From contig JAUCBJ010007962.1 of the NCBI GenBank assembly GCA_032718475.1, positions 7,400-71,399 on the forward strand: a stretch of DNA of 64,000 bases, given 5' to 3'. Source of the DNA: Nemertoderma westbladi (lineage: Eukaryota; Animalia; Xenacoelomorpha). Under the pieces are notes generated by a model. That model ran no database searches. It saw only the letters and a program-made list of their open reading frames with translations, and was not told the origin of the DNA. Positions 1-28,641 of the stretch are shown in pieces. Position 1 is the stretch's first letter, and each line of letters starts with the position of its first letter. The translations under genes and the position numbers were made by a program.

Positions 1-1062
1 ACATGGTAAGGCAAAAAACCCGCAATGCACCAAATGCCTTTACACGGCTTGGCCTTGATGATTCAGATTGCGACATCTAGCAGCTGGTTGCTGGCATGGA
101 AACAGCCATTGGACGCATGGTTCTTTGTTTGGCTTGAGCCAATCAGAGCGATTTCTTCTGTCGACGTGTAGATATTCGGCCGATGATACTAGAAGTGTTC
201 AGTCTTACTGTTTTTGTGATACTGTTGTGTTCCTTCTATCTAGGCCAGGAACACCGGCTCTAGAGTCAATTCGTTTCAGACTTTAGAAGAAACATTAGTA
301 GGCTTAAGATTATAGAGCGTATAACTGTTATCAGTGCAACACGGCACATACATTGTCATATCATATCTTAACCTACCGTCTTAATGCTGTTTACTGTTGT
401 GTTTTGATTGAATATTATTTGGAGAACATTTATAAAGAACCCAAATTTCCCAATTTTCTTGATACACTACAGGTTAGAGAGACGGGTTATATATAGCGAT
501 TGCGACTTATATTATTGTGGTTTGTAGTGAATTTAATGCTATTTGATAAGCACTACATGAGTCCGTTGCTGTTCTCTTTATATATGATAAAATTCATTGA
601 CGGTCGGCAAATTAGTGAGCAGTATTGTGTTTTACCGGTAGTGTGCATGATTGTGACTGATAACTAAGCATTTTCTAAAGAATGCGCCTCATACGTGAAT
701 CATAAGCCTTACCGACTTGCCGTTGTGATTAGTATAAGTCATATCTCTGTTTACCTAGATAGAGCGCCACGTCCTAAAGGAACTGTTAATATTTCCCGAA
801 AGTGAATAATATTAGTCAGAAATTATTTATTAACGATCAATCGAATAATACAATAGGCTTACACTGCAATAATAATCTAAGCCCTCAGAATCCAGTCTCC
901 CGGGTATATCCAGCGGGTGAATGGACGCGCACTAGGCTGGCTTCTGCTATTGTTGTGTTTATTGGTATTAAATATTTGTCAACTTCTAAAGTCTATTTAT
1001 AAACCAAAAGACATATAAATTTTGGCAGGTTAAACTGCTAAAGGTCTTCAAAAGCGCGTACA
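1..1062 (+). repeat. 5' LTR of element 1 (first ~178 bp lie outside the window)
   Basis: Matches 11328-12389 with about 8 substitutions by eye; ends GCGCGTACA; CCAAT near 139 and Inr-like TCAGT near 199. Confidence 0.93.
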
Positions 1063-1104
1063 ATAACAGTTATTGTCTTTATTGCAGTAAGCAATAAAGT
1101 TGAA

Positions 1105-1260
1105 AGTACCGGTCGACCGGTAAACCTGAACCGGTACTTCTGTAGGTCAGTAGGCCCAACTGCCAGAACCGGTACTGCCGTAGGTCCGTAGGTCCAACTG
1201 CCAGAACCGGTACTTCTGTAGGTCCGTAGGCCCAACTGTCCTAACCGGTACTTCCAGTAT
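1105..1260 (+). repeat. Short tandem repeats (~30-40 bp, CCGGTACTTCTGTAGGTC.GTAGGCCCAACTG) in the element 1 leader
   Basis: About 4 imperfect units visible. Confidence 0.8.
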
Positions 1261-1483
1261 AAGTACATTAGTATTATTCGATTTTGATTATTGTATACCG
1301 GTAGGTCTTAGTATTTAATCAGGGACTGCAGCCCTGGTTCTTTATTGAGATTTTACCTATTTCTGTCGGTTTTATTTACATGTAAGTTAATATTGAGCTG
1401 AAGACGTGTAAGTCTGCTCAGATTGTTCAGATAATTGTAGGCCGGACTGTTGTTAGATTGTTGTTGGGTTTGGAGAGATTACG

Positions 1484-1931
1484 GCGTGTGTAGAGTTTGT
1501 CCGATAGAGTGCCAGTTAGTAAGTTGGGGCAGCCATAGCTGTAAGGTCAATCCCCTCTTAAAGAATAAGTCGTACTACCGTGTTAGAACGCATACTAACT
1601 AACCATTTTGGAATCTGCACATACTGTAGTTTATTTAGGCTTGACAGTATTCTGCCAACGTTTTGGCCTGTGTTTGTTTGTGTGGTCTGTTCAGGTACCG
1701 TAATAGTTATTACTCAGATATTTTGTAGGCTGGATTGTTGTCTAGCTATTATTAGGTCTGAAGAGATTGCTGCGTGTGTAGAGTTTGTCCGATAGAGTGC
1801 CAGTTAGTAAGTTGGGGCAGCCATAGCTGTAAGGTCAATCCCCTCTTAAAGAATAAGTCGTACTACCGTGTTAGAACGCATACTAACTAACCATTTTGGA
1901 ATCTACACATACTGTAGTTTATTTAGGCTTG
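1484..1931 (+). repeat. ~160-bp direct repeat (offset 289) in the 2.2-kb leader of element 1
   Basis: GCGTGTGTAGAGTTTGTCCG...TTTAGGCTTG occurs twice, nearly identical. Confidence 0.9.
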
Positions 1932-3299
1932 GTGGTAGTCTGCCAGCGTTTGGTTTGTATTTTGTTTGAGTATTCTGTACGGGTAGCGTAATATTTATTA
2001 TTCAGAGTTTATGCGATTATTCGCAACATTCATGTCCCCAAGTTTATTCCTACAGTAATTGTGTTTGTTACACATACCGTTATAGTTAAATTAACCCCGG
2101 TACTACACGAGCTGCTTGGCGTAGGAAAAGACTGGTGACTTTGTGCTTCGGTCACTCCAGCAGATGCCGTGGTTCTTTTAACTGTTCAAGTATATTTAAC
2201 TACTGATTATTTGTTGTACCAGTACTTGTACCTAATTTAGGGTTTAGTGTACAGTGCTTTCCGAGGTAATTAGTGTGTAGGCAGTATATTTGTGTTGTAA
2301 AGTGGTTAATAGGCACGCTGGATCTGGTAGTCCGCGGTAATTAACTTCTAGGTAGGAACACTCCGTGATACATAACGTAGTACCTATAGCGATACGGTTA
2401 TAGGTCGTCAGGCGGTGGTATTTTCCTATCTGGACAACGCAGTGTATTTACTACTACTTATTATTTTCAAATACCGTAGTACCCTGTCCGTTGTAATAAC
2501 CAGAATTCTAACCCTTTGTTAGGCTGGTTTGTAGACTTCCTGTAAAATTACCCTAAAATTTCGTACGTAATATTTTTGTTGTGTTTAATTAGAGATTTAA
2601 TCTCACCCGTATCGTAAGTAATTTGTAGTATTAAGTAACTTAGGTAAATTAGAATTATCTGTTTTAGTGTCCCATAGGTAGCACTTCACTGAGAGCGCAC
2701 AGCTTCTGTGTAGTGACTCCCCCAGAAATAATAACATTATTATTTCAAATATTGACAAAACCCCTTTTAAACGGGTATATATCTATTATAAATCAACTCA
2801 AACGATTTATAAATAGTAGGCCTGCCATACAACAACTAGGTCTCAAAATCAGTTGGACTACTGCTTAAATAACGGTAACAAAGTAAGTTAAAGTAACCAA
2901 GTAACCCTAAAATATTCAGAAATTCAATTATTCTAAATTAATTGACATACCGGTATTTACCATAGGCTTCTTATATTTATTTCTATAAATTTGAGCTGAA
3001 ATCATACCGGTACTCTGTAATTAATTCTAGTCCATAATTATACTTATATATACTATCAGTGTAAGCTGTATACCGGTATTCACGATAGGCCTATTATATA
3101 TTTATATATATTTGTGCTAAAATTAGATACCGGTACTCTGTGACAAACCTAGTTTACAATACTTATATATACTATAAGTGTATACCGGTATTCTAATATA
3201 CTGTAATAAATTAACGGTACTAGGCCAACGGTCATACTGAATTACTAGACTTGCTTTAACTGAAACTATAGCAGTAGACATTCAACTGTATAGCTAAAC

Positions 3300-6200
3300 A
3301 TGTCTGACACTCAGCAAAACCTGTCAGACAGTCTAATCGATACAACCATCTGTGACACAGATAGGAGTGTGGAGCGATTAAGAAAGGAGTTCAGCTCACC
3401 TCCTACTGAAAGAAAGGTCATCCCTCCAGTAGTAGTATCAGACCCTAAGCTAATCCAACACCGTAGGTCTATCATCGGCACTCGGGCCCAAGTCAAACGG
3501 AACCAGGAAGCAGCTGTCCCACAGCAGCAACAGCCTAGTCAAGAAACTTGTTCCCAGCGATCCGATAGCTCCAGTAGTTCGGATACTGTCGAGCTGACCC
3601 CCGAACGCGGATTGCAGATGGCGGCTACAGCCTACTCGGATCCCCTTCTCACCCTTCCTGCCGCAGTGCTAACTACTATATTGATTGCGGTGGAGGAACA
3701 TCAAGCTGATTGGGCGAGAAGTAAGCGAGCGACCCAAGATAATTATGCGGGATACGCCAGGGAAGAATTGATGTCTATTGTCGAGTCACAATGGAACTTT
3801 CCCGGACCCGGACTCCCGTTAGATTTGTCCGAGGCTACTTGGGAGGATATATACAGGATGGGAGTGACTAAAGATACAATGGACCCAGCTGTTTGGAAGA
3901 GGTCGGCAGCAGGATATGTGCAGGGATTCTTCGGCTCCTTGGAGCAATTGGAAGAACAACTGTTTCGACAACCCCTAGGACCTCAAGAGCAGGAAGAGCT
4001 GCTATATCAAGTACGCGAAAGAACCCTGCGCATTAGACTAATCCTATCAGCCTTTGAGGAAACTTCCAAAAGAAGACAGGACACGTCGCTGCAGGTTGCT
4101 GTCAAAACTTGGTTCCAGCGGGTAGGTCTCAAAGTACAAGAAACGGACCAGTGGAAATCCCAGCTGTCTGAGAGACTAACCTATGAAGAACCAACCGATG
4201 CCACCCTTTCTCAAGTGGAAGGCGAAGAGACCGCAGAGAGACCACGAACGAGAGACGCCATCGACATATATCTGTCCGACTATCAGCGATTCCTAGGAGA
4301 CGAAGAGTTGAGGAGACGGCTGTCTGGACTTTCCCCTAATAGTGAAGGAACCCAGCGTGTGTTAGACTCAATCGATGCTGAAATGTTAGCTGCTAACCAA
4401 GCTGAGTTTGATGAAAAACTCCGCCTCACTAGAGTCCAAGAAGAACTAGTAAAGAAAAAAAGGATAGAGGACCGAAAGGCAGCTGCAGTAACAGCGGCAA
4501 TGGCCGAAGTGGAAGCAGAAAGAAAGGCAGCGGCGGCAGAAGTAGAAGCAGAAAGAAAGGCAGCGGCGGCAGAAGTAGAAGCAGAAAGAAAGGCAGCGGC
4601 GGCAGAAGCAGAAGCAGAAAGAAAGGCAGCGGCGGCAGAAGCCGAAGCAGAAAGAAAAGCGACTGTGGCAGCAGCAAAGGCAGTGGCAGAAGCAGAACAG
4701 AGGGCGTCTGAAGAGACCACACAACTGGAGTTGGAAAATCTTCAAGAGACGCAAGATTGCATAAATAAACAGTTAACTGCTAGTCAAATGCAGATGAGGA
4801 GTCGATCTACTCCCAAACGCCAGGGATACACCTCATCAGAGGAAAGCGAAACCACCGATCCTGAAGGCGGAGGAAATAGATCTCGTCTAAGCAGGCGTAG
4901 AAAAACATCTCACCATCACAAATTGCCTGATTTGCCCCCAGCGGTTAGAAGACAACTAGCTAGCCCAGACTTAGGTAGTATAGAACCTACAGACCAAATT
5001 ATTAAGGTCAAAAGACTCCCTACAATAGTCGATGAGCCTGAAATAATTGGGCCTGTCGTTCCCAAAGCCACTACTGTGCTAGAGACCCCTGTACTTCCAG
5101 AGCTTAACTCTAAATTCCCTTTACACAGGACTACACTGCCTGTACCCGGTAGAACAGTCCATGAGAATATCCCTGTCCTGGAAGCTGAGAGAGAAATCAA
5201 AGATTTGTCTCCCGTCGTCCCGCGTCAGCCCGCTACAATGTTGGCGACTCCCGCTTCGGCGGTCGAGTGGGTAGAGGAGGGACGGCGGGGGATGAATCTC
5301 CTGCTCGGACAGATGCAGGAGACTGTCCACCAGCTTAAGGGAACAGTAAGGGAAGGTAGGGCAGAATTGCAAGAAGTGCAGCAAAGTATCGCACTGGAAC
5401 GCGACAAATTAGTCAATATACAAAAGGGCATACCAATACCCCCTGTAACATTGTGTCAACCTGTTAGGTCTGAAGTATTACATGCGCAAGGTGTGGAGCC
5501 TACATGCATCTATACTGCTAGTGAAGTGGAAACTCCTATAGCAAACCCTATTAAGGGTGATTATAGACCTGTTGTTAATGATATTCCCTATAGACCTGAT
5601 AATGATCCGAGAAATTTATATACCGATAATTCGATATTAAATAACACGATGGCCCAAGAAAGCTTTACGCGTCAGATGGCTAGAACAGAAGCCCGCCAAG
5701 CGGTCAAAGTGGGAGAGATCGTCAAATTCAATGGAGATGAGATGAAATGGTTACCTTTCAACGAATATTACAAAGACAGCATACAGAACTCTGTGCTATC
5801 TAACGGAGAGAAACTTAGGTTCCTCATCAAGTGCTTGGAAGGACCTCCCAAGTTAATGGCGTTAAAGTTTATTGGACATCCAGAAGGATTATGACAAGTT
5901 TGGGATACATTAAACATCAGGTATGGTAACAAGGATAACATAGCTAAGTATTTGTATGCAAAATTAGTAGCCCCCCGAAACTTCCTTAGTAGCGGTATTA
6001 TAGAGTTTTCCGATGAGATTCAGGAGATCTGTAGACAATTGGACTGGTTAGGTAAGTCTCATGAATATCAGAGTTCCATGGTTATTGGAGCAGTAGTCTC
6101 TACTTTACCAAAGGGTGGAGTATGTACACGTTGGGACAAGAAAGTGTTGTATATGAATGAGCAGCAACGACGAAGCCCTACCATGGCTGATCTCATGTCC

Positions 6201-7991
6201 TTCTTAGATAGTGAAGTAAAATTACAACTCATAAAGCAGTCCAGAGAGAAAACATCGGAAAATAAGGTAAGTGAGAAACCCGTTTCTAGGAGAAGGATAA
6301 TACCAGTGTGTTATACTGACGACGGCGAAAGCCAAGCTTCTCAAGAAGAGGACAGCGGGAAAGACACAGCAAAATCTTACTATGACAACAAGACCTATAA
6401 AGACGTAAGTAAATACAAGTCTCGAACCAGTGACAGGAGAGAACAGGTAACAACAACTCCTCCTACGTCTCCTAAGAGAATTTACGGAAGAAAGCCCGAA
6501 GAAAGAACGAGAGTGCATAACGTTACCCAAGGTAAGGTGAGTAACATCAAACCAAAATGTGCGCTGTGCGACGGGCCCCACCGTTTGAGTGCGTGTGCTG
6601 AATTTCTGAAGAAATCCCTTGTAGACAGACGTACAGTCCTGTGGAATAAGCGGTTATGCTATAATTGCCTCAGATCAGGACACCAACGGCGAACCTGTTA
6701 CTCCGACGTAAAGTGTGCAAAGTGTGGCGCGAAACATCACATCTTGTTACACAGTGAGTTCGAACGAAACAACCCGAGTCAGGTAAGTGAGCCCGAACTA
6801 CATGTCCAATTCAGTGATGTAAATGACACTGATCAAGAGTCTGAGATGGAAGGATTCTATACTGACGAATTCTCCGACGCCAACGAATCCTGTTACCTAA
6901 TAAATACCTCAGTGTATCGAGCACTTACTTATGAAAAGGACACCGACAATGAGTTCCCCCCAACTACTTTTGCCAGACAACCATCTTGGAAAGCTCCAAC
7001 TTCCAATGTAGGAATCAGAGAATTTCCTGTAGTGCAGGTAAGAGTTCATGGTCCTAACAAAAGTTACATAGTGAACGCCCTCCTTGACTCCGGCAGCACA
7101 GGAAAATTCATCGATCAAGAACTAGCCGAAGATATCTTTGCTGGACAACCCAAATTCCGGACTAAATTGAATATGTCAGGAATTATGCAGGTTTGGAAAT
7201 CTACCCTAACGGCAGACTACTATGTAGGTGTGTTGTCCACCCCCCAGGATAAATTAGGAGCACAAGGTATAAGGTCGGTAAAAATGGTGGCTATAAAGAA
7301 CTTCGCTACTACCCAAGCAGACCTTTATAATTGGGACGAGGATGAGAGCATCCAACATCTTAAGATACCTCGATTCCAGACAGATTATCCTGGAGTGCAA
7401 ATACTCATCGGCCAAAACGCGCATGAGGCGCTCGAGACATTGGAGAAACGGCCTACTCAACCGCAGCCACTACAAACCTATGCGGTAAGAACTAGAGTAG
7501 GTTGGTACTTCACTGGCCCTTCCCGTAGAACTCTCAAAGAGAGATTACCTCAACAACAGGTATACCAAGTAAAGGAATGGGAAGTGGAGAGCAGTGATGT
7601 GGACGATCCAACTGAGGGAACACCATACTCCTCAGATAATGACGATATTAACTCCAATGTAGATCAATGGAGACATTGTCTTGGGACGATTAATCCAGCC
7701 GACATCGCTTCCAGAGGAGCAACTCCTCAAGAACTGATAGATAATCCAGGCTGGTTAGGTGGATCCTACTTCTTAAGTAAAGAAGAAGGAGAATGGCCTC
7801 CTCATCTTACCCCGGTGAAGATTAGACAGGCCAAGGGAGCGGAGAAAGTAACACAACAACTAAATCGCCCAGCTAGTCGTTTATGTTTACTGGAAAGAGA
7901 CCGAAAACTGTCCGGAAACTATGGAAGGCAAGATACTCTTCCTACGACCACTTCCCTAATCCGACAAATATCTAGGGACTCCATAACGTAA
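3300..7991 (+). pseudogene. gag: Element 1 Gag-protease polyprotein fused in frame to an RNase H C-terminal remnant; one in-frame TGA at 5892
   Basis: ORFs 3300-5894 and 5952-7991 share a frame; DUF1759-like KFNGDEMKWLPF; BEL knuckles CALCDGPH..C, CYNCLRSGH..C, CAKCGAKHH; protease ALLDSGS; then directly QWRHCLGTINPADIASRG; 11-aa AEAERKAAA repeat at ~4500-4670. Confidence 0.9.
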
Positions 7992-9622
7992 TAACATATG
8001 GAGTGGGCGTGTGACTATATCATTTTATATTTGTTTTTATTTTATATTTATGTATGTATTATTATGTAATTTTATTATAATCGTTTCCTTTAATTTTATT
8101 TAGTAGAATGTTATTTTAGTGATTATTTAGTAAATTAGTGCAATATATTAGTGTTTATTACGTACGTAATTACTTATAATATATATTTAGTGCGACGGCG
8201 AGAAAATAATTATTTTTCTATTTCCTTACTGTCCGTATCATATTATAAATAGGTGACTACAGTAAGATGAAATGTCCGTACTTATTAAAGTACAATAAAG
8301 CCACTACTATATTCAAGTATTATTGGTAGGCAGAGTATTAGGAATGCAAAGTTCAGATCCTCGTGTCTCGGCTAAACCAAGCTCTAGGTAGACCTTGGAA
8401 ACGACTTGCCTCTTCACACTGACATTGCTTCGTGCGATATTGCTCTTCTACCTTATATTAAATAATACATATAGTAGCGTGATGTCCCTATAACAGTAGC
8501 GTAAAACGCAAATAAATCTGTTAAACTTTTTGACCATCTGTAATTCTAGTCGATTAAGATATCGTGGCACCCACCGATATACTTGAAAGACAAATTCTAG
8601 AATCAGTGGTTAACGTCCCCAGACAAGTTCTGGAATAAATCGGTGCCTATCTTAAATATTAATTTAATATTTATTAAAATCTGTAAAATTCAGATCCTTT
8701 AAAATTTCTAGTCAATTAAGATATCGCAGCACTTACCGATACTCTTAAAAGACAATTTTCATAGAATTAAGGATCCTATGTCCCCAGACCTGCTCTGGAA
8801 TCAAATTGTGTCAATTTTAACATCAAATAATAAAATTCACGGGAATAAATTTAAATTCATATTTTAAATGAATTTCATAAATTGTCATTTTGTGCAATTT
8901 ATAACATTCCCAAAATTCCATTAATTAATAGATCATGGGAGCGGAGATTCATCCTATTGAGTGTATTAGAGTGCGAGAATCTCCAACATATAGTCAATAG
9001 CCGATAAAATTAATAAAATCATGCATAAAGAGGATATTGACAATTAAAGAATTATTATTAAATAGCATCCCAGATCTGTATGCATGAGAATTACCCTAAT
9101 TCTACCGCTAGCATTCCATAATGTCACCATAGCAACACCCACGCTAGAATCAGAAGCAAGTTAAGAGAACAATAGAAAGCTTGTCCCATTGCATAGCATA
9201 GAGAATACATAGCACACTGTTAGTATCCAAGGATACACAGTAATAACGTGACATTCTGGAATGCACTGACTAACGGACAAATGGCCTGTATGTGTACAAT
9301 TGGTGACAGTTGTGTGGAATTTGTGCGTTTATAGGTGAATGTTACTGCTAAAGTATGTTTACAGTAGCTAGTCGCAATTGTGAAAGTAGCCCAACTCTCC
9401 TATAGAAAGAACCTCAAGTGGATTCAAGCCTTTGGGACGGACAGTGGAGTGACTTGTGCCGGTTATCGTTGTCGTGCTGTTGCTACATGTTGGCGTAAAT
9501 ACCGCGACGACAGTACATCGGCGCTGAGAATCCCACTGTCCGGGGGCAAAGAGAGGTAGGCAGCGACGCCCGCTCGCCTAAACATAAACTCATTACAATA
9601 TTAATAAACTCAGATAGCAGAT

Positions 9623-11071
9623 ATGACGGAGTTGATAGAAGATGATCTTGGTATCAGGGAGCGATATACTCTACCTTTACAAGCATTTGTGGATAGCTTG
9701 ATACGCGATGAAGCCGATCCAACCATTACGGAGGACGATGGTCGTTATATCGAACCGCCGATGTCCCAAGAGCAACTTACGCGTGAATTGGACTATCGAA
9801 AATTCACCGCTCGCTATACGCATCGTAATGGTACATATATGGACTTCCTAACTACCGGCCATCCTATCGATTTACATGATACGGACGATGTAGACACCGA
9901 AAGGGAAATGGTTCTATTTAAATATCATACCCAGCGGAGTCGTAACGATAAACCGAAAATAGATCACGAAAATTCTATTCGTAACAGACTGGGAAGACGA
10001 ACCAATATGCCTAGAATCTGAGGAGATTCAGCCTATCGCGCCCGGAACAGCGACAACGATTACATCCTAGAATGGTATCAAGGTCCACAGTGTCTCACTG
10101 CGTACGATTATCGCCATGCCAACTATGTTTCTCGGCAACGTTGTCGGTTATGCGCATCGAGAGACCATGTTACGCCCATGGACACAAACGTCCGCTGTTC
10201 CTATTTCCACGAACAACCGGCGATGGAAATTTATTGCGCGTATTGCAGACTCAATAACTTGCACATTTTTGCGGTTTGCCCTCAATTTATGACTCAATGG
10301 CACCATGGTCAACTAAAGGGACGCGCCAGTTTCGATTGCCCTTTTTAATCACGATTTGGAAAGCGTAGATGAAATGATCACACTACGTTACATCAGAGCT
10401 TGGGAAGCGAACGCTGATTTACATTGTGATTCGCGCCATCGTTATTATCCTGGACGCGCTTACGAAGGAGTTTATGCGTTCCATCCTTATCTATTCGCTT
10501 CTGTCGAACAGAAATCACGCATATCGAGTTACGAACTACTGAAGTGCGTCGGAGAATGTATTTCAACCAAGTTCGTACGCAAATTCTCAGGAGTGTTAAT
10601 CCCAGCGACCTTCATTCCTATAGCTTAATCAATTATATCCGTCAGGACCCGGACTATGGAGACTTATTTGTTAACTCACACCCCGAGTTACAGGAAGTAT
10701 ATCGACGGCCTTATGAATACCGAGCCTGCGAACGCGAGTTGGAAAGAACCATTAAACCCCGGAGGTTTCTAACTGCCTATGGTCCACCCACGGCTCTCGT
10801 TCAGACCACTCGTAAAGGACCCGTAAGAGCGGCTGTCTTGAAACGAGCTCTCAAAGCCGTTAGACCCCTCTCCCCCGACGTTGATGTCAATCAACCCGGT
10901 ACTTCGACTGGCGGATACACCGACCATAATCCTACACCCTCTGATGCAATCATATTGCACCCTTCACCCAGGAGTTATAGCCCTCCTTGTAAAGTGGCTC
11001 GCCCCAAAGAGAAAAGGACTCTGGCTAGCTTTAAAAAACTGCGTAAACGCCGTCCGCGCAAGAAAGACTAA
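9623..11071 (+). pseudogene. Element 1 accessory ORF2: degenerate triple CCHC zinc-knuckle protein with basic C-terminal tail
   Basis: Reading through TGA 10019 gives RCRLCASRDH..C, CAYC..LHIFAVC, WHHGQLKGRASFDC; after a frameshift WEANADLH; ends KKLRKRRPRKKD; aligns by eye with element 2 ORF2. Confidence 0.75.
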
Positions 11072-11149
11072 CTGTTTAGAGTATTTACGTATATTAGAAA
11101 CTGTGATTTTGTATATTTTATAGACTCAAATCCCATTTTCTGGGAGCGG

Positions 11150-12389
11150 TGTAAAAGCTTCTGTGGGATATAACTGGCCCCTTTGCTTCGCAATCCAGTT
11201 TCTCCCCAGGCGCTGGAATACTCTAAAAGGTTCTCTAACTGTATATATATTCCCCTCGCCCGCAAGGTACCATTACAGGTATTTTAACGGACATAAAAGT
11301 CATTCTTCTATATACGTGCTTTGGCGGACATGGTAAGGCAAAAAACCCGCAATGCACCAAATGCCTTTACACGGCTTGGCCTTGATGATTCAGATTGCGA
11401 CATCTAGCAGCTGGTTGCTGGCATGGAAACAGCCATTGGACGCATGGTTCTTTGTTTGGCTTGAGCCAATCAGAGCGATTTCTTCTGTCGACGTGTAGAT
11501 ATTCGGCCGATGATACTAGGAGTGTTCAGTCTTACTGTTTTTGTGATACTGTTGTGTTCCTTCTATCTAGGCCAGGAACACCGGCTCTAGAGTCAATTCG
11601 TTTCAGACTTTAGAAGAAACATTAGTAGGCTTAAGATTATAGAGCATATAACTGTTATCAGTGCAACACGGCACATACATTGTCATATCATATCTTAACC
11701 TACCGTCTTAATGCTGTTTACTGTTGTGTTTTGATTGAATATTATTTGGAGAACATTTATAAAGAACCCAAATTTCCCAATTTTCTTGATACACTACAGG
11801 TTAGAGAGATGGGTTATATATAGCGATTGCGACTTATATTATTGTGGTTTGTAGTGAATTTAATGCTATTTGATAAGCACTACATGAGTCCGTTGCTGTT
11901 CTCTTTATATATGATAAAATTCATTGACGGTCGGCAAATTAGTGAGCAGTATTATGTTTTACCGGTAGTGTGCATGATTGTGACTGATAACTAAGCATTT
12001 TCTAAAGAATGCGCCTCATACGTGAATCATAAGCCTTACCGACTTGCCGTTGTGATTAGTATAAGTCATATCTCTGTTTACCTAGATAGAGCGCCACGTC
12101 CTAAAGGAACTGTTAATATTTCCCGAAAGTGAATAATATTAGTCAGAAATTATTTATTAACGATCAATCGAATAATACAATAGGCTTACACTGCAATAAT
12201 AATCTAAGCCCTCAGAATCCAGTCTCCCGGGTATATCCAGCAGGTGAATGGACGCGCACTAGGCTGGCTTCTGCTAATGTTGTGTTTATTGGTATTAAAT
12301 ATTTGTCAACTTCTAAAGTCTATTTATAAACCAAAAGACATATAAATTTTGGCATGTTAAACTGCTAAAGGTCTTCAAAAGCGCATACA
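11150..12389 (+). repeat. 3' LTR of element 1 (1240 bp, TGTA...TACA)
   Basis: Preceded by purine-rich GGGAGCGG; matching inverted tetranucleotide ends; repeat of 1-1062. Confidence 0.92.
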
Positions 12390-15300
12390 CATGGTGATCA
12401 CGCCGAAGTTTTGAAAAGCGTAATAAGACGTTTAAACATGCGTTACCGACAGAAATGGCGCAAATTAGAGAATAAGTTGGAAGGTCAAGGTAAAGTATTG
12501 ACACTTCAACACATTCATGACATGATAGCCATAGACGCATTAGCAGAGATGAAGTCAAACTTCTCAGAGGAGAATATGAGGGAGTCTAAGCCTGTTACTG
12601 GTAAGTCAATGGTAAGTTTTGACGATGACAGGACCACTGTGACTTTTAACTCAGTAGACAGATATGATTCGAGTACCCCAGCCTTTAGATCAGACTCGCG
12701 AGTATGGTCAGGTGAGCGGTTAGATAGACCTAGGTTAAAGCAACAGGAGTTGCCGGATGGATTTGTAGGTTGCCAATTCTGCTTGCTAAAAGAGGTAAGA
12801 TCTGATGACAATAAGTTGGACAGTTGCAGACGGTTTCAAAGAATTAAATTCGGAACAGAGAAGAGTTCAAGTGCGGACGTTGGACACCTGTTGGGCATGT
12901 CTTGCGCCAGGCCATGTACGGCGGCAGTGCCCGAACAGCAAGGATGGATGCATGGAATGCGGCAGACTACATCACAAGTTGCTACATGCGGATTTCCATA
13001 CCCCAACGGACCGTTACTTACAGAGAAATCCTCAAAGGAAGGGGAGCAAAGAACCCGTATCGATAAGAAGAAATACGTATACTGGCATCCAGGACGATGG
13101 TTATCAACCAGGTTCGTCGGACGAGGATGGCGAGGCGAGCGCGAGAGAAGTGACCTGCCAAGGTTTCACCGCGGATAGTTCATCGACCAGCGCACGGACG
13201 TATTTATCATCGGCCACGTCGGAAATATTTAGCATGATTCCGGTGAAACTTACTGGGGATAAGGGATCGAAGAGAATATATGTGATGTTGGACACTGCGT
13301 CCACATTATCATATATCGACGAGGAAGTGGCGAGAGCCGTTTCTAGCTTCCAGGACGCCGAGGAAATCCAAATAGAGTTAAACTCCATGCACGGGGTAGG
13401 GGACCTCAAGGGACACAGAATTTCGGTAGAACTAGATTCCCTACTTCCGAGAGACCAACATACTCGACAAGAACGGAGAGCTTTGCCATTAGATGGATTC
13501 AAGTGTCTAGCTATGAAGGGGTTCGGCAGGCAGTTAGGTAAGGTGCCGCCGATGAGTCCCATAGCACAGGAGTATTTTGACAAGCTCAAAGTACCGAGAC
13601 ACCAGGTAGGTTATAGGAATGTTTCTATGTTGATTGGTGCAGAACAGCTGATCGCACACCAAATATGGGAAACGAGACCAGCTGAGCCGCATGTCAATGG
13701 ACCACATGCCTATAGGACTATATTAGGTTGGTATACAAGAGTACCCATGTCTTATGAGTTTACAGGTGGCGACAAGCCAATAGATAGATAGGACGGATTA
13801 CAGCCTATAACTGAACCACCGTTAGTAGAACCACCAGACATAGACGAGTTTAGGAGAACCTGTATTGACCATTATAGTGACGTTAGCGAGTCGGACGAGG
13901 AGTTGATTCCCGATAATGTTAGGTTGTCGGAACCACTTCATAACGACCGGACAGATAGTGAACCCGAGGACTACTGTTATCAGACCCGTGGGTCTGGTTC
14001 AGCGGCCCACGCTACCTATTTGAGTAACATTTTGACTTATACCGACATAGTGGAGGGTCAAGTGGCTAAATATCGAGACCTCGACATTTTCCAATACAGT
14101 GAGGAGGAATTGCAGAAGGAATTGATACGCCAGGACCTCGAGACAGGAGCTAGAACCGTCGAAAGGCTGGATAGGGACGCAATGGAACCCGGTGGGTATG
14201 ACCTAACCATGTCCACTGATGAGAAACGGTCGCTGGAGATGATGGAAGATACCATACGTCTGCTACCGACAGGACATTTTGAAGTTGGAATGTTGTGGCG
14301 TCGACAACCACCTAAGTTGGAGAACAACTACAGCTTAGCCTTGAAAAGATTGGACGGAGTAAGGGCTCGGTTGTTAAGGAATCCAGACATTAGGGAGAAG
14401 TGTTGCGCCCAGATCAACAACTATTTCGCCAAGGGATTTGCTGGGAAGGTAGAGGACCCTGACTTAGTGACAGACCAGACATATTACCTCCCACACCACT
14501 ATATGACTCACCCTGACAAACCTGATAAAGTCCGAGTGGTCAACGACTGCGCAGCAGTTTACAGAGGTATGTCCCTGAATTCAGAGTTGATGGATGGACC
14601 CAACCTGAATAACTATTTGATCGGAATACTGTTACGTTTTAGACAGCGGCGATTCGCGTTTACTTGCGACATCGAGGCGATGTTCCACCAGGTAAGAGCC
14701 TGTAAGGCAGACCAGGATAGCCTTCGATTTCTCTGGTTCGAGAATGAAGACTTATCCGGCCCGGTGGTTACATACCAGATGTACGTTAGGATATTTGGTG
14801 CCCGCGATAGTCCGAATGGCACGCTGTTTGTTCTAAAGAAAACGGCAACAGCCCAGATTGGTAAGTATCCAGTAGAGGTGATCGAGTCTATATTGAGAAA
14901 CTTCTATATGGACGACGGATTGGTGTCCAAGGACACGGCAGAACAAGCCATAGAAGTGGCTCACGGCCTACAGGAGTGCTTGGCTACAGGGGGTTTTCCT
15001 CTAACCAAGTTCACTACAAACTCGGAGGCTCTATTAGAGTCGTTCCCGGTGAAAGATCACGGGAGCGGAGACATAGAATTGGGGGTAGAACCCATCCCCA
15101 TGGCGCGAGTACTGGGACTCGCTTGGAACCCGAACACGGACAAGTTCCAGGTAAGAGTTAGATTTGAGCCCAGTAGTCCAGACAAAGTTTTGACAAAGAG
15201 AATTTGCTTATCGACATTAAGTAGACTATTTGACCCGATGAACTTTATCAGTCCGGTAATATTACAGGCACGAGCGTGCATGAGGAAAATTTGGTTGTCC

Positions 15301-17872
15301 GACTTAGAGTGGGACGAACCAATATCTCCTATACATGCAAAGCAGTGGAGAGAGTGGGAAGTCGAGTTGCATCTATTGAAAAATATAGATGTACCCTGTT
15401 CCTACTTTCCGAATCAGCTGGTATTCCCAGCTGATCTCGAACTCCATTTATTTAGTGACGCAAGTGACACCGGCTTTGGTATGGTAGCCTACCTTCGCCG
15501 AGAGGTAAGTCAGGATAAGTTTGAGACGGCTTTTGTGACTTCTACATCAAAGACAATGCCGGTCAAATACATGACTGTCCCTCATGCAGAGTTACAGGCG
15601 GCAGTAGTTTCAGTCGAGGTAAGTAAGCAGATAACAAAGGAGTTAGACACGACATTGACCTTATTCTATTGGACGGACGCATCCTTAGTGTTAGTATACA
15701 TTGCAGCTGACAATATTGCACTAAAGACATTTGTGGCCAACAGACGCGCTCAGATCGTCGACTTTTCGACGAAGGAACAATGGAGACATTGTCCGGGAGT
15801 GTTGAACCCGGCCGACATAACTTCGAGAGGTGCAATGCCAGCGGAATTCTGTCAGGAAGAGTCTCAGGAGTTTTGGTTGCATGGACCTGATTTTCTGATG
15901 AGGACACAGGAACATTGGCCAGAGTGACTGAAGATAGTGACCAATCCGATGCCCGAAGATGCAGAAGTCAAAGTGGAGAAAGTCTCTAAGTCAAAGTCTA
16001 AAGCCAAACTCAAGTCATTGGAGCAGCCTGAAGAGTCATTGGAGCAGCCTGAAGAGTCATTGGAGTGGCCCGGAGACCTGTCAGACCTACAGACTTACGT
16101 GACTACTAGGTCCGGAAGGGTAAGTTATGACATAAAACCACCCTTACAGACTAAACCAGAGTCACAGTTGGTAAGTGACGGACAGAAAATGACCGACACA
16201 ATGGAGCCTTTGGTTTCCAAACCTGCGGGTTTGGATTCGAAACTTCCATTAGTTAGCGGACAACCGTCGCTGGCATTAGAGTCATGCAGTGTTTATGACA
16301 AATTACTAAATTCGTCTGCCTCTTGGCTGACAATTTGTAAAAGAACTGCGTGGTTAAGCCGATACGTTTCGTACCTTTGTTTAAAACATTTGAAACATTT
16401 AGGAGAACAATTGAGCACTAATATTGAGCGAATTCGGAAATTGAAACAACCTCTGACAGAGGATGAGATTGATCAAGCGGAATTAAAGCATTTGAAGTAC
16501 TATAAAATGTGTGCCTTCCCAAAAGAATTCTATCTATTGTTGGCTCAACAACCAGTTCTCTCCTTAGAAAATGGAGTCCATTAATCCATAAGGGTTTGAT
16601 TTGTCATAGATCAAGAATCCAGACTGTCGACATAAACTCACAGTTTAGGTTCCCAGTGATAATCCCTAGTCACCCAATAGAATTGCAAAGAGCGATTCTA
16701 TGGGATATACACAAGAGGTTGCATCACGCGGGAAAGTTACACTGTTTGTCGACAGCGAGACAGCGATTCATTCTATTGCAGCCAAGCAGGGCAGTAGGCA
16801 CTATGTACGATGCCTGTCTGGTTTGCAAGAGGGTGAACGCCAGAGTATTGGAACAGGAGATGGCTGAACTCCCGGAAGCGAGAGTGCAGGCATATGACCC
16901 ACCTTTTACAAATACAGGGGTGGATTGTTTTGGTCCGATTGAGGCAAAGAGTGGATGGCTGACCCACAAGCGATGGGGCCTGCTACTGACATGCATGGCT
17001 AGTAGAGCCATACATATCGAGCGTGTGGCAGACATGTCGACCAAATCTCTGCTCCTGGCCTTAAAGAGATTTATGGCCAGGAGAGGACTAGTACAGGCGT
17101 TTTACTCTGACAAGGGTACAAACTTTGTCGGAGGGAATAGCGAGTTAAATGCGGCTCACAAAGCAGCGCAGAATAAAGAAATTTCTGCAGCACTTTTGCC
17201 GCAAAGAATAGAGTGGAGATTTAATACTCCAGAAAGTCCTTGGAGAGGAGGAAGTTGGGAGCGTTTGGTTCGCTCTGTAAAGCAGGCTATTGCCAAGACG
17301 TTGCCTGTGAACAAACAACTTACCAACGATGAACTGGTCATAGCTTTCATCGAAATCGAGCATACCCTAAACTCGAGGCCGATAGCTATGTTGCCAGACG
17401 GTGTTGCATTAACGCCGAATCATTTGCTAATGCAGAGTCCAGCATTTCTTCTGCCGGCATCAGAACCCATTAGTGCCGACCTATATAGTCGTAAGAGCTG
17501 GAAAGTAACACAATTTTAGCGTACACATTCTGGGAATATTGGCGGGAATATTATCTTCCCACCATATCCACCAGAACAAAGTGGTACAAAACGGTTCGGA
17601 GCCTCCAAAGAGGAGACTACGTATTGATAACCGAACCGATTATCAAGAGAAAATATTGGGAGACGGGAGTTATCTTGCACATACACCCAGGCGTGCAAAA
17701 CATAGTGCGCACAGTCACTGTGAAAATTAGGTGCAAGTGTCCGCACCCAAAGAAGTGTAAAACTAATGGTTTGCACACCTTGGACCGACCGGTCCAAGAT
17801 ATCGTGTTATTAGAGGAGACACGCATCGAGACGGGAGATTATAATTTGTCTCCTGCCTCAAAACAGAATTAG
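12390..17872 (+). pseudogene. pol: Element 2 gag-pol (zinc knuckles, protease, RT, RNase H, integrase, DUF5641-like C-terminus) with stops and frameshifts
   Basis: CWACLAPGH..C; VMLDTAS; YYLPHH, KVRVVND, CDIEAMFHQV, FYMDDG; LFSDAS, YWTDAS, NPADITSRG; HHCC, GVDCFGP, SDKGTNFVG, WERLVRSVK; in-frame stops at 13789 and 15925. Confidence 0.95.
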
Positions 17873-18546
17873 TGTTGGACGCAACTCACTTCGTATGCAT
17901 TCCTCGTATGCAAATACAAGGAAATGCATAGGAGCGGGTTTGTGGTGATTTGCGTTGAGTTTTGTCTGGTGGGTATCAAAAACAAAATTTTATTTTCAAA
18001 AGTTTTGGAAAATTAAAAAATTTTCAAAAATTAGAAATGAACCCAAGACAATTCCAGACGCTGTGTATAGACGCGTTTTGAATTCGTCTATAGATATACA
18101 GTAATTTGAAAAGTCGTGAAGCCTGGAAAATAGCATTTAGAAACCATGGTGACGGCTATATTACGTAGGAGTGTAAATTGAGTTTAGCAACTTCTACAGA
18201 TTGGTGCCAACAGTACAACTAGGGTGCTAAAGGTTAGTAGCATCAGAGGCGTACACGACCCCACTCAGTAGTTTGCAGTGAAGTGTGATGTTCGATATCA
18301 AACCTGTGGGTTTGGTATAGTCGAGCATTGAGACTATTGTCCTTTCTAACTACTGTAGTTTATTACGAGTAATGGGAGTAGTTTGGGCATCAAAAAAGTG
18401 AGTTGGTCACGGCCAGTTTATCTCCAAACTTTTGCGCTATGCATGGGAATAGGTTAGAGGATAGTTAGGAAGAGACGGGATCTAGAGAGTCGAACCTGAA
18501 CTGCTGGAAGGCGGGGGGGTTCGGGAGGTCTGTCCTTCGGCGGCAT

Positions 18547-18620
18547 CTAACTGATTTATCCGCAGTGTAATTAGTTACGTAACGGAACACTTATTGGGAT
18601 ATATATATGTGTATACGCAG
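18547..18620 (+). promoter_or_regulatory. Candidate splice acceptors for ORF2 (CTAAC branch plus CAG at 18565; CAG at 18620)
   Basis: CTAACTGATTTATCCGCAG and TACGCAG just upstream of ATG 18627. Confidence 0.4.
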
Positions 18621-18626
18621 ATTATA

Positions 18627-21600
18627 ATGGAGAAGGGAATTAGAGCCCAACCGCGGAGAGGATTTACCGCTAGAGAGGAGGCGGAGCTACCATTTGCCCA
18701 ACCGGGATGTAAAGATTCGAACGTTTACTACCACGGGAGGTCGGTAATGGAGCTAAATGGGAAGTATAAACCCTCATATGATAAGGAATTAAGGAGGGAA
18801 AGAATGAGAGCGTTGGGGGACCGTATGGAAGTTTTGCGGAAGGAGTATCGCACTCGGTATCCTTACGATTTTGCGTTAGACGTATGTGACATTAGTGCAG
18901 ACCCGGACGAGGAGATTGCGCGGCTGTACCATATGAACATGTATTTTCGACACGACGAACCTCTACCTGCAGTCCGAGATCAGTTCGACGGAATGCATCT
19001 TTACCGGAGGACTCGAGGCGAGGATCAAGAGACGCCGAAGATCTTCAGTATGTACAAGTTGTTCTATAAATTTGGTGAATGCATGAACAAACAAGACGTG
19101 GCGATTCCCGACCGACTGGACGAGCAACATCCTGAACCGATATTAACGCGATGTCAAGCTCACCAGTTCCTTAGATACAACGAGGGAGGTTACCCAATGA
19201 GCAACCCGATGATTAGTATCGACTTTAGCGGAAAGCAACCTCCAAGACCCATTACGCCGACCGTTACGACATTAGATCCATATACAGAGATTAAACCCTG
19301 TTCGACACCCAGTTTGATAGAGATGGCAGCGGCCATTTCGCTATACCGAGCCTACAAGGATGTAGAGGCGCGGCGCGAAGCGGCACGGGACTCGGGTACC
19401 AAACCCGCGGGTTTGGAGCTCTCGAGTCCCTGGACTACGTTTACTTCGCCTCACTGAGCGAGAAGCCTCACGCCTGAGCATCAGGACGACATAGACGCAT
19501 TGCGGCAGGAGGAGTGAGCGGCGAAGGCGAAACAGTTATTCGAAGAGCGGGTGGCGGAGTATAATAAGACCGCGGATAGACATCAGGAGGAGACTAGGAG
19601 AGTGACTGGATTTGTTCCACAGGCCGTATCTCAACCCCGACCGGTGTATTATTCCGACGGCAACGAACCTGCGATATTGGTAGATCACCCGGAGTCGCGA
19701 GAAGCGATTAGATTCTTGCCGATGGTAAGGATGTTGGATCATTGGAACGTCGACTGTCTACGGGAAGTTTTATGCGCGAAGTTCTTGCGTGTTCCCGATG
19801 CAGATCACAGATTACGACACAATGGATTAGATTGGAGCTCCGGGGAAGGAGAGTAAATTATTCGGATGGTTGGATAAGTACATCAAGGTATGGGTCGCGG
19901 TGGCTACATTCCCAGACGACGAGGAGGTAGACCAGACGTGGCTGAGGAGGAAGGGTTCTTACACCTGATATGATGACCACAAGGCTATCGAGCGCATGTG
20001 GACCCCATCAGACGAGATTCAGCATCAGTGGAGGAAAACGGAGGAATCACTGCAGGATTGGAGGGTGATGTTCTACGACAATGAAGGAGGGTCTCATCAA
20101 GAATGCTTGACTAGTAAGTGCATTCAAATTCGCGCGGCCGATGGTGTGACTCATGTGTTTATGCGCGTAAGGGCGGATCGAGAGAAACCGGAGCCCATAA
20201 TAACGACACAATATCGGAAAGGGAAGGATCCTAGGGAACAGATTTTGGAGGTATGCAGGCGAGGAGGTATGCACGGAGCGGAGCGTATCGACGCCAGGAT
20301 GCTACCCAAGAAGGTTAGAGAGGCTATTCTTAACCAAGATTACGTCAAGGTGGGATCGGGAGTCCAGAGTGATTTAGAGAGTGACTTCAACGCCATGACT
20401 GATTTGGAAGATAGATTGCCGATACCGTTTGTCGACACCAAGCTATTGTTGCTATGGGCACAGGATATTGGAATTTATAGGGAGTATCCCAACTCTGCCA
20501 AGACTGGTATGGGCTTCATAGCGCATTTGTTGTATAATTGGGACTTTAAGTTGAAGACGCAGAAGAAGTACGAGGAGGTGTATGGCGAATACAACATGCC
20601 ACCGGGAGCGGAGTTCAAATCCCACTTCAAGCGGCAAGCGTTAGTGTATTGGAACATTTGCGCGCGACCCCGTGCGTCACTACAATATTATTTGGTGCTT
20701 GAGTCGAACACGGTAACTTGTTTATTAGCGGATATCGTTGCGCGAGTTTTGAAGCGTCATCCATTGGTGTTTGGAGGAGATCAATACGTTCGCTCGAAAG
20801 GAGGAATCCAATCCGACGTGATGAAGCGTTTCTTAACCCCGTTCTTCAACCAATCGTTAGAGAATACGTCGATGGTTAGGAGAGGATTAGCGATATTCGA
20901 AGGAATATATCGACAGAACATCGGAGATTTGGGAGACCGACCGTCAATGGAATATCCGACGCCAGAGGCTTTGGAGAACTGGTTCGGGAATCAAACCCGC
21001 GGGTTTGGTACTCCCTTCCACTCGGAGGCTGATAGACCTATTAGAGAGGGTTGGCCGGAAACGTTAGTAGAGGTGTTTGGAGTGGATCTTCCGGTGGAGA
21101 AGACATATCCGAAACGAACGCGGGAGGAAATATTGGAGATAGAGGACAAGGGCGAGGATGTTTACGTTGTTCCGGATCGACAACCTTTGACCGGAGAGGA
21201 CGACATCGTATTAGACATTGGGAAAGAAGGAAGTGCGAAACCGATTGGAGACCTCATATATGAGAGGGCCTGGTTTCCGCAAGCGCGTAGGTGCAAGTTG
21301 TGCAGCAGCACAAGGCACAATCAAAAGTTATGTGACGCGGTAGTAGAGGCGGCGCATAAGGTCTGCCGTTGGTGCAATGAGACCGACCATTCGTTTCATA
21401 CGTGCACCGACTTCATTTCTCAATGTGGATATTGTGGAGTAAAGGGACATCGTAGCGCGAGATGCCAAATGCGAGATGATTCCTTTCAAAACCATAGCGC
21501 TAACCTACTTCGGGAGATGCTAGATAAGTGGGAAGGTGTGGCCGACTACCACATCCAAGCACAGATGCGTTGGTTACGATTTAAGAGGGGATATGGATTT

Positions 21601-22311
21601 TGGGCAGTAGACCCATCACACGTTGCGTATGAGCCGTATCTGCAGTCGTTACCACAATATCAAGAGCTCATCCTGACCGCTCAAGACCTTCCACAGAACA
21701 CTGGAGTCATCGTTGTTCGGGAATACTTCAGACAATTGAACATGGATAACAAATACACTTGGAACTTTGTTGCTATTTGCAACCGTATTACAAAGGGTGT
21801 ATTTTCGGAAACTAGAAAGGTGGTGCGCGCGAGAGGAGATTGGAGGATGGCGGCTATACAATACCGCAACGAGTTCCTATTGACTCACGTACCGGTGGGG
21901 TCATTGACCGCTAAGAGGATCGAGGAACAGAGAACCGCAGCGCCCACAGCGACGACTGTTGGAGCTCAAAGCTCACGGAAGGAACCAGGAGGAGAGGTCC
22001 AAGACAAGCGTCAAGTCAAGGACGACCACTACCATTCGATTATAGAAGCACAGGGAGCGTTGGAGAAGGCGCGGGTGCAACTGCAGAAGGAGGAGTTGGC
22101 GGAAGCGACCACAGGAGCACGATTGGGACGAGGCCGAGGGAGAAGTACGAGCCGGGAATCTGTCGGGGCTCAGGGAACATCGTCACCGGTTCCAGGGAGT
22201 GACGCCTCGCGGACAACATCAACAGAGTCGACTACTGGAGGAAGATTGGTGTATCTGGGAAGGGGGCGGAAGAGAGGAGCGAGCCCAAAGAACCCAGGAG
22301 CGGGTCGGTAA
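18627..22311 (+). pseudogene. Element 2 accessory ORF2 (~1200 codons originally): unknown N-terminal part, DEDDy-type 3'-5' exonuclease (~20060-20730), three CCHC knuckles (21292-21465), RG/basic tail; 19996-22311 still open
   Basis: VMFYDNE (ExoI), LPKKVREAILNQDYVKVGSGVQSD (ExoII), FVDTK, W..RP..LQYYLVLES (ExoIII-like); CKLC..H..C, CRWC..H..C, CGYCGVKGH..C; upstream parts joined by TGA read-through and frameshifts. Confidence 0.8.
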
Positions 22312-22833
22312 TGCATTCATATCATGGGGCGACAGACTCTAGATATATACATCATCGTCGCTCTGATGTATATTGTAGCATTTTCGTAAATATCCGACCG
22401 GACTCATATACTAGTCGTAACAATTTGAATTTATATTATGAGAGAGGCGAAGGAGGTGATTGGGGAGACAAACCTGCCCTAGCCTTTCACCTACCACCTT
22501 TCACCTTTCACCCACCCTAGCAAGTTTTATAAAAGAGAAGGTATTTTTGTAAATTTAATTTGTATGTAGTAATCATTATGTAGAACGAATGAGAAACGAT
22601 ATTTTGTAAATTTAATTTGTATGTAATAATTAAACAGTGAGAGAGATAATATTTTGTAAATTTGATTTATTTGAAAACCCATTATGCAATATCTATGCAA
22701 TATTTGTAAATAGTAGAATTATTATAGCATCAAGATATTTAGATTATTTGGAAGTGAATTTATTTTGTTTGTATACATCGCCTATACTCTTCTACAATTG
22801 GAGGGAAACATTGCATGATTTCCCTTGGAGCGG

Positions 22834-24576
22834 TGTTACGGTATATTATGGCGCTGTACTTACATTAGTCCGCATTATACAGTATAATAATATTAGTCCG
22901 TTATACAGTATAATATATTAGCCATTATGCAGTATAATATATTAGTCGTTATGCAATATAGTTATTTAGATAAGACATAATAATGCGCAATGACATTTAG
23001 ATAAGGAAAATGAAACGCCCATATATTTTGAATTCATCCATTTTGTATAGTATGTAGCCCTACCTATGTAATTTTGTATTAGGATATAAGTAGATAGTTC
23101 CAGGGTAGCAAGTTCCTGTTGGACCCTGGATGTGGGCTTGCTGTTATTAGCCTTGATGGGCTAGCTATTGGTTTTAATTTTCTCTATAATTGCGCTAAAT
23201 TAACTTTTGTGCATCGTATTAATAGTACCGCTAAATTAAGCACCGGCAAATTTACCTTATATGGTGACGATTTGAGGGTTTCGGGAGCAATAGGTTCACG
23301 ATCCGGCTTTCTTATTGGCCTAACTGCTTCCAGGTTGGTCTAATGCTAGCTCGGATTGGGGAGCCAATGAGAGAGCGATTGCATAATCCCTCATGAACCA
23401 CCTATAAATTGGCCGTGTTTCCGGTAAATGTAATCATCTTTGTTGTACACTATGTGCTTTGTAATTAATCTCAGTGCTTTCTTTATAATTCTGCATTTCT
23501 ACCTCTTTTCGATTTTTTCTTACGATGATTCGCTAATTTGACTATTTCTGCTTGTGTTTCTCAATCAACCTCAATGATTACTATAAATTACAATTGGAAC
23601 TATGATTTCTACCCTTTAGTAAATGGTTCTATGTGATTCTTTTCGACACAATAATCCTACGGGATTCCTTAGACTGTCAGACTGTTTGGTAATTTGAATG
23701 CGCCACTACGGTACCTATTCATTCTGATGGAGAGCTAAGTTACCGGTAAGCGCGGCGGGCGCATCGGGGGGTTAGCGACGAAGGGAGTGTGGAGGATTCA
23801 AGGGCGGGCAGTGCTGGCGAGAGCACTATTGCGGCTAGAAGTTCGCGGTATAGAGGAACCCAGGTTCGCCGGAACGGTAACTAGGGGGCTGATAATCCAG
23901 ATTTTGTCTCTATTTGTAGTATTAGGGGGGCAGGAATTGGGTTAGTTAGGAAGCTCCAGATGTATCCGGGAGAGACCTGCGTGCCTTACAATCGTGAGCT
24001 AAACTGTAAACTATTGTTTGTTGAATCGTGAGCTAAACTGTAAACTATTGTTTGTTGAAACGTGAGCTAAACTGTAAACTATTGTTTGTTGAATCGTGAG
24101 CTAAACTGTAAACTATTGCTTGTTACGCTGATTGGTGTGTTACTAAAGTGTGCCTAATAAATCACGAATGCTTAGATAGGTGCTCTTTTCCCTTTGATTG
24201 ATTTCTATTTCTTAGTTTATGACGAATAGTTACTGATTAGGTCGAAAAATAATACAGTATTTTAGGCTCTTACTGGTGCTACCAGTTGTGCGATAAATTA
24301 GAATTGCGCATTCTGGAATACTTAGTAATTAGTACGCTGTACATATTTGTGACTGTAATTAACTAGTAAAATTAAGAATTTTGTACGCAGCATAGCGGAG
24401 AGTAGTTAAGGTAGGATTTGGAGTACCGTAACTATTCATGCAGGGCGGTTATTTGAATTAGAGGACGATAAGTTACATTGTAGTATACAGTATTTAGCGC
24501 GCATTAGTAAATTGCTGGCCTAAAGCCAGCCGCAGGTAAGTCTAGTCCCACTACAGGTATTAGCCGTAATAAAACA
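22834..24576 (+). repeat. 3' LTR of element 2 (end uncertain, ~24576-24616)
   Basis: Starts TGTTACGG after GGAGCGG; CCAAT ~23364, TATAAA ~23403; internal 34-bp tandem x4 at 23990-24124 and ~27-bp tandem at 22860-22960; no partner LTR in window. Confidence 0.7.
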
Positions 24577-28515: not shown

Positions 28516-28641
28516 CCTACTTACTGCGTACCTATTATGTACTATTATTTTTTTTATTTTTATTTTTATGTGTGGGAAGGGCGTCTCGCCCTCAATCCCA
28601 CCCCCCTCAGTCCAAAACTTGGGCGACTAAACTCTACTCGA

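Follow-up and report, generated by a model that had tools for sequence, protein, structure and literature searches.

A probable DEDDy exonuclease gene with three fused zinc knuckles in a BEL/Pao retrotransposon of Nemertoderma westbladi

Introduction

The closest described systems are found in mobile elements of bdelloid rotifers. DEDDy ORF3s have been described in Juno1/2 and Vesta2/5, and also in Terminons, with a DEED motif and a function given as putative in the accessible text of the sources (PMC5408684; PMC6431247), and the accessible text of several reviews repeats these rotifer exonuclease ORFs (PMC6431247, PMC5718144, PMC6338049). A cellular point of comparison is TbRND, whose CCHC fingers, according to the available part of the work, bind single-stranded RNA and stimulate cleavage by the DEDD nuclease (PMC7797062; PDB 7C42). 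The rotifer precedent had been named correctly in a preliminary description of the DNA analysed here; a nematode precedent named beside it was not found in the literature searched, which left most subscription papers outside its scope. The same literature, Repbase also lying outside it, yielded no DEDDy gene in a BEL/Pao element and no LTR element whose nuclease is fused to knuckles. To our knowledge, animal-retrotransposon suppressors of piRNA or siRNA silencing have often been supposed and rarely caught.

Here we analyze a stretch of 64,000 nt from Nemertoderma westbladi (assembly GCA_032718475.1, contig JAUCBJ010007962.1, positions 7,400-71,399, forward strand), referred to as the window. 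One of its BEL elements, element B, carries a third gene, ORF3, that codes for a probable DEDDy exonuclease domain followed by three zinc knuckles. DEDDy third genes are already known from the rotifer elements, which are of another type; what appears new relative to these, as judged from the sequence, is the BEL/Pao host and the fusion of the predicted nuclease to knuckles.

Results

Element B and its neighbours

The pol of element B was identified, upstream of ORF3 and on the same strand, by matches to PF05380 (E 1.3e-36) and the integrase zinc domain PF17921 (E 7.6e-6), and its domains follow the PR-RT-RNase H-IN order of BEL/Pao elements, including the Pao domain PF05380 (Table 1). ORF3 lies 3' of the integrase and 5' of the likely 3' LTR of the element. 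The PPT and LTR start of B are placed at 22827, where the motif GGAGCGG-TG would mark them, as an identical motif precedes the 3' LTR of element A. Since the younger element A interrupts the gag of B at 12389, the 5' LTR and the primer site of B lie beyond the window. No tRNA was found in the window.

Element A encodes a Gag-protease and has neither RT nor IN. It is a young, non-autonomous element with a 2.2 kb leader, a short remnant at 7662-7722 that resembles the RNase H end of B (77% to 15775-15835), and a 33-base Ala/Glu-rich coding repeat in its gag (4448-4697). Other repeats in the window include a 34-base tandem repeat in the presumed LTR of B (23990-24158), a tandem duplication of ~2 kb (94.5%) at 24836-28771, which contains 44- and 52-base repeats and whose start resembles 60619-60827, and an array of ~10 kb with related units every 400-1100 bases (50066-60499). 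A piece of another reverse transcriptase is found at 46852-47421 on the plus strand (PF00078, E 7.6e-20).

Table 1. Features of the window discussed in the text, in window coordinates
Feature	Position	Strand	Remark
Nested BEL-type element A	1..12389	+	LTRs 99.2% identical over 1062 bases; inserted in gag of B at 12389
Candidate self-priming site of A	1063..1073	+	11 nt directly after 5' LTR
Broken extra gene of A	9623..11071	+	Knuckle cluster matching the B/P0002 knuckle profile (E 1.1e-4); without exonuclease
BEL element B, remaining gag and pol (PR, RT, RNase H, IN)	12390..17872	+	Broken by stops and frameshifts
Hairpin copy 1	13980..13997	+	One compensatory pair change in stem
Hairpin copy 2	16217..16234	+	
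Hairpin copy 3	18298..18315	+	Between pol and ORF3
Probable 5' part of ORF3 gene	18627..19995	+	Stops and frame change in this copy
Hairpin copy 4	19399..19416	+	
ORF3 of element B, open 771-codon part of third gene	19996..22311	+	
Likely DEDDy (DnaQ-like) exonuclease domain, ~aa 20-250	20053..20745	+	ExoI D28/E30, ExoII D126, ExoIII Y232/E236
Hairpin copy 5	20991..21008	+	In ORF3, between nuclease and knuckles
Three CX2CX4HX4C zinc knuckles	21292..21465	+	
Post-knuckle segment	21478..21795	+	Weakly common to extra gene of A
Low-complexity tail	21913..22308	+	Short amphipathic helix-like stretch, RG/basic end
Putative PPT end and start of 3' LTR of B	22827..22834	+	Purine-rich GGAGCGG, then TG
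BEL element C (gag, PR, RT, Pao domain, IN), broken	28772-33632	-	Without long extra frame after integrase

Layout of ORF3

The 771-codon open frame announced in the preliminary description is present, and so are the motifs named there, YDNE at aa 27, KVGSGVQSD at aa 118, FVDT at aa 145 and YYLVLE at aa 231. Of its longer motif, W..RP..QYY..E, the R at aa 224 occurs in this copy alone (share 1.0), so that 'W..RP' is no family motif. The three CCHC knuckles were located at aa 433, 457 and 477, and the RG/basic tail contains four RG pairs in aa 700-771. In the segment after the knuckles, the likeness to the extra gene of A was equalled by 1 of 1000 shuffles, and that to P0002, the homolog described below, was not significant (143 of 1000). 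The maximum 19-residue hydropathy is 1.34 in ORF3 and 0.88 in the pieces upstream; neither therefore has a membrane segment, and ORF3, as had been proposed, is not an Env. A nested LINE-type ORF1 was considered as the source of the knuckles and rejected, as no RT is found downstream and the region has a hairpin in common with pol.

The core of this hairpin is a palindrome of 18 nt whose loop has 4 nt. It occurs in five copies, all of them in element B; when up to 3 mismatches were allowed, the remainder of the window had none (0 copies expected by chance at 2 mismatches). Copies are found in pol and in ORF3, which indicates that both belong to one element. The coding copies give two different peptides and one copy is non-coding, so the signal would reside in the nucleic acid. 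When folding was compared with 200 shuffles, four copies were equalled by 0, 1, 0 and 3 shuffles and copy 1 by 38, in a comparison where palindromes favour such folding anyway. The hairpin had no Rfam match, and an Rfam scan of window positions 1-30000 gave nothing relevant. It could serve Gag as a packaging or dimerisation signal, be bound as DNA, or be recognised by the knuckles of ORF3.

A probable DEDDy nuclease domain

The preliminary description had assigned ORF3 a DnaQ/DEDDy domain with E in place of the ExoIII D. This assignment is likely, judging by residue columns, the homolog P0002 and the Atlas. Our reference set was made of 40 bacterial PF01612 domains taken from the matches listed, and in joint alignments D28, E30, K118, D126 and Y232 fall on columns that are invariant in all 40. 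The ExoI pair D28/E30 is aligned with D and E in the 40 bacterial domains and in P0002, and the ExoII residue D126, together with K118, is invariant in 42 of 42 alignment rows. At ExoIII the tyrosine is kept (Y232), and E236 stands where 40 of 40 domains have D, so that the ORF3 domain is DEDDy-like and no canonical member. The DEED motif of the bdelloid lineage is not found, as the third acidic residue of ORF3 is D126. Pattern and spacing agree with the catalytic residues given for EXD2 in the accessible text (D108, E110, D171, Y242, D246; PMC6648332).

Direct comparisons of the ORF3 protein were weak. Searches of Pfam, NCBIfam, PHROGs and PDB gave no nuclease match for it; against DEDDy profiles its score was matched by 8, 143 and 240 of 500 shuffles, with hhalign values of 0.2-0.6%. 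A profile of the ORF3 and P0002 pair was unconvincing (score 24.8 with a best shuffle of 23.9, and score 21.0 with a best shuffle of 32.7). In the Atlas, 24 of the 30 hits of the ORF3 protein carried the PF01612 set (score 0.91), the top three being without names, with a recognition value of 2292, just under the mark, and 157 shared features, below the mark. AlphaFold without an alignment gave a pLDDT of 34, and Foldseek found nothing with that model. Guided by the DEDDy alignment, the model reached a moderate pLDDT of 61, which is circular as a test of fold; Foldseek on this circular model placed EXD2, RNase T, NrnC, Rrp6, TbRND and Nibbler high, with a best E of 0.038 and all E above 0.001. 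Two other candidates, ribosomal protein S2 (E 0.005 with a two-sequence profile) and rotavirus VP4, were discarded as chance hits with no shared motifs. The exonuclease profile had no second match among the 1114 frames of the window. The order of the motifs, together with several matches that are weak but agree, makes a DEDDy fold for aa ~20-250 of ORF3 very probable.

A search of 1.84 billion proteins found a single homolog, P0002 (648 aa, 27% identical, E 6.7e-5), a single-member cluster from a 9,449-base contig; the other homolog searches found none, and the rotifer Juno, Vesta and Athena ORFs were absent from the hits of all of them. Its layout is like that of ORF3, with a nuclease-like domain and then three knuckles. 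P0002 matches PF01612 weakly (E 0.052), and against a pooled DEDDy profile none of 500 shuffles reached its score (hhalign 48%, E 1.8e-4). Its nearest neighbour in the Atlas, to be taken as a lead, is a euglenozoan cluster with PF01612 and CCHC (0.86), and the second is an EXD1-like cluster (0.77). A two-sequence MAFFT alignment placing the DVE of P0002 at aa 53-57 was dropped, as the 42-sequence alignments put it at YDNE; the ExoIII residue of P0002, E as in ORF3, was read from other alignments, since its C-terminal half had slipped in alignment A3. Scans of metagenome, viral and prokaryote contigs with the ORF3 protein and alignment found no loci, and tblastn on phages gave E above 1.

Copy number and purifying selection

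When contigs of three DNA runs (X1-X3, two samples) were aligned to positions 12300-25000, thousands of contigs per run were obtained, which shows the family of element B to be high-copy, and 30 of 30 bins were covered in X1-X3. Variants were taken from region 19840-20780 in run X2, as places differing in at least 10% of depth. There were 43 such places, 40 of them listed, and 3 of these precede the ATG and were dropped, so that 37 were counted (aa 1-261, the nuclease part). Synonymous changes make up 31 of these 37 against the 31.5% that a transition-weighted model predicts (p 7e-11, crude dN/dS 0.09), and would make up 31 of 40 in the worst case, with the three unlisted places all non-synonymous. 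All six non-synonymous listed variants have a share of at least 0.988 and are therefore private to this dead copy; as the 0.985 share cut-off was picked after the shares were known, the uncut count of 31/37 is the figure to trust. The 40 listed places all lie outside the codons of D28, E30, D126, Y232 and E236, and no indel reached 10% of depth in this region and run. These selection data come from the contig depths of one run (X2) and refer to the nuclease part. With thousands of contigs and this excess of synonymous variants, ORF3 is multi-copy and selected, and not the single neutral copy that it might have been: it is, practically with certainty, a real gene of element B under selection.

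The motif order and spacing, the hairpins common to pol and ORF3, the complete coverage of the bins, the lack of flanking repeats of its own and the related gene at the same place in element A make it very unlikely that the domain is something other than a DEDDy nuclease, or that the gene is a separate passenger in the element, a reading to which one might be led by the missing significant direct match of the ORF3 protein and by the summed contig depth of ORF3 relative to pol (0.35 in X1 and 0.39 in X3; 1.02 in X2).

Extent of the gene

Translation probably does not begin at the ATG at 19996. At both in-frame stops just upstream, 19828 and 19966, the contigs of X1-X3 depart from the sequence of this copy over their whole depth. 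Coding-type base periodicity (low G, second codon position) extends from ~18630, with a change near 19800 into the frame of ORF3, and in run X4 one contig has indels relative to the window inside 19141-19879. The absence of the stops from other copies, the periodicity and these indels suggest one gene of ~1,230 codons from the ATG at 18627, which in this copy is interrupted in its 5' part; ORF3 probably makes up the remaining two thirds. For that 5' part, no match fell below E 0.6 in Pfam or below E 0.2 in PDB.

Contig joints reveal internal deletions of the third gene in some copies. For the deletion 18773-19102, each of the three DNA runs gives good support; 19433-21835 and 19945-21436 remove the nuclease and have low depth.

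A candidate self-priming site in element A

The 11 nt that follow the 5' LTR of element A are perfectly complementary to LTR positions 499-509 (window positions 321-331; 11648-11658 in the 3' LTR), against a background of 5 in 2217 positions. Such a complement between a site after the LTR and the LTR itself resembles self-priming of the Tf1 type as given in the accessible text (PMC4600332). One role proposed earlier for the ORF3 enzyme is to trim a self-primer at its 3' end, a role that this Tf1-like site in a related element would suit if A could borrow the enzyme in trans. We consider this highly improbable: the site is the sole self-complementary primer site in the window and belongs to A, whose extra gene has no exonuclease, so that candidate primer and nuclease are on different elements, and the primer site of B lies outside. 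Furthermore, the complement in A has no mismatch and directly adjoins the LTR, and the Tf1 primer is reportedly excised by RNase H (Levin 1996, cited in PMC4600332).

Discussion

Like the ORF3 of Juno and Vesta in the accessible descriptions, ORF3 of element B is an RNase D-like gene after pol, in the env position, with no membrane segment and with an altered acidic motif. Compared by description, it differs in its BEL/Pao host, in a DEDE motif, changed at the last acidic residue, where the rotifer motif is DEED, and in three fused CCHC knuckles, of which the available text describes none for the rotifer ORFs; the gene probably has ~1,230 codons. Purifying selection is found for ORF3, whereas the accessible text of the rotifer paper gives selection tests only for env and GDSL ORFs, with near-neutral variation (PMC5408684). 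With TbRND it has in common a DEDD domain followed by tandem CCHC fingers, with a weak knuckle hit to 7C42 (E 0.33). However, TbRND is, in the available text, a cellular mitochondrial protein with four fingers near the nuclease and a canonical last Asp, whereas ORF3 has three fingers after a linker of ~180 aa and is on a mobile element; the resemblance is probably convergent. Proteins of the EXD2/WRN and EXD1 types have a similar KVG-type ExoII stretch, and EXD2 gave the best, weak Foldseek rows, but ORF3 differs from them by an insert of ~40 aa before ExoII and another of ~25 aa before ExoIII, by E at ExoIII and by the lack of a significant sequence match.

The explanation that we tentatively prefer, by analogy, is that ORF3 would encode a metal-dependent RNA 3'-5' exonuclease with RNA-holding knuckles, which would trim or destroy the small silencing RNAs of the host. 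The predicted zinc knuckles would hold single-stranded RNA and feed it to the active site, as in trypanosome RNase D. Element C, a BEL element of the same window, has no such gene, which points to ORF3 being accessory, as host-conflict genes are, and for an accessory gene an attack on small silencing RNAs would be the likeliest job. A diffusible suppressor, however, agrees no better with the strong purifying selection between copies than does a protein that acts on the RNA of its own element. Catalytic activity is fairly likely despite the E at ExoIII, and, if the enzyme is active, silencing RNA would be a slightly better guess for its target than the intermediates of the element itself. The caveat for catalysis is the change of the last Asp to Glu; in TbRND a mutant of the last Asp, D230A, keeps trace activity only, according to the accessible text (PMC7797062).

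The presence of this E in both ORF3 and P0002 gives some room to a pseudo-nuclease, whose fold and knuckles would bind the RNA of the element, perhaps at the hairpins, and protect, package or carry it with no cutting. The five hairpin copies confined to element B, where none would be expected, speak for such a protein, and between-copy selection suits action in cis. Egalitarian carries hairpin-bearing RNAs, and it is among the Foldseek rows of the guided model, though weakly (E 0.59). This reading is doubtful, because four of the five catalytic positions hold the canonical residue and the fifth has kept an acidic one, in two proteins with no more than 27% identity, and dead nucleases usually lose more catalytic residues; the link between protein and hairpin, moreover, is conjectural. 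Precedents in its favour are EXD1 and Maelstrom, inactive DEDD derivatives that bind RNA according to the available text (PMC5408684). A further and quite unlikely reading is self-recognition, in which the five hairpins would mark the RNA of the element and the ORF3 protein would dock at them and shield or carry this RNA; it may do so through the destruction of small RNAs that arrive there, or as an Egalitarian-like adaptor of its own that replaces Env.

It is unlikely that an active ORF3 nuclease works in the particle on the replication intermediates of the element, where it would trim 3' ends of RNA or what RNase H leaves behind, or proofread or polish cDNA ends for the RT. Intact acidic residues, strong purifying selection and knuckles that resemble nucleocapsid fingers are all compatible with such work, and 3'-end processing of element RNA has been proposed for the rotifer ORFs in the accessible text (PMC5408684). 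However, the gene is separate, starting ~750 bp after the integrase with no fusion to RT, and its absence from element C indicates that replication does not generally need it. Proofreading for the RT, one of the functions suggested in the preliminary description, found no positive evidence.

The preferred reading, destruction of small silencing RNAs, would bring forward a candidate enzyme in a high-copy family, with a clear signal of selection, unlike the rotifer precedent, and with a built-in candidate RNA target. The putative nuclease of element B extends exonuclease capture to BEL/Pao elements, and its layout suggests that nuclease and CCHC fingers have been assembled more than once. If self-recognition were true, an animal LTR retrotransposon would encode a sequence-specific module for counter-silencing or transport at the RNA level.
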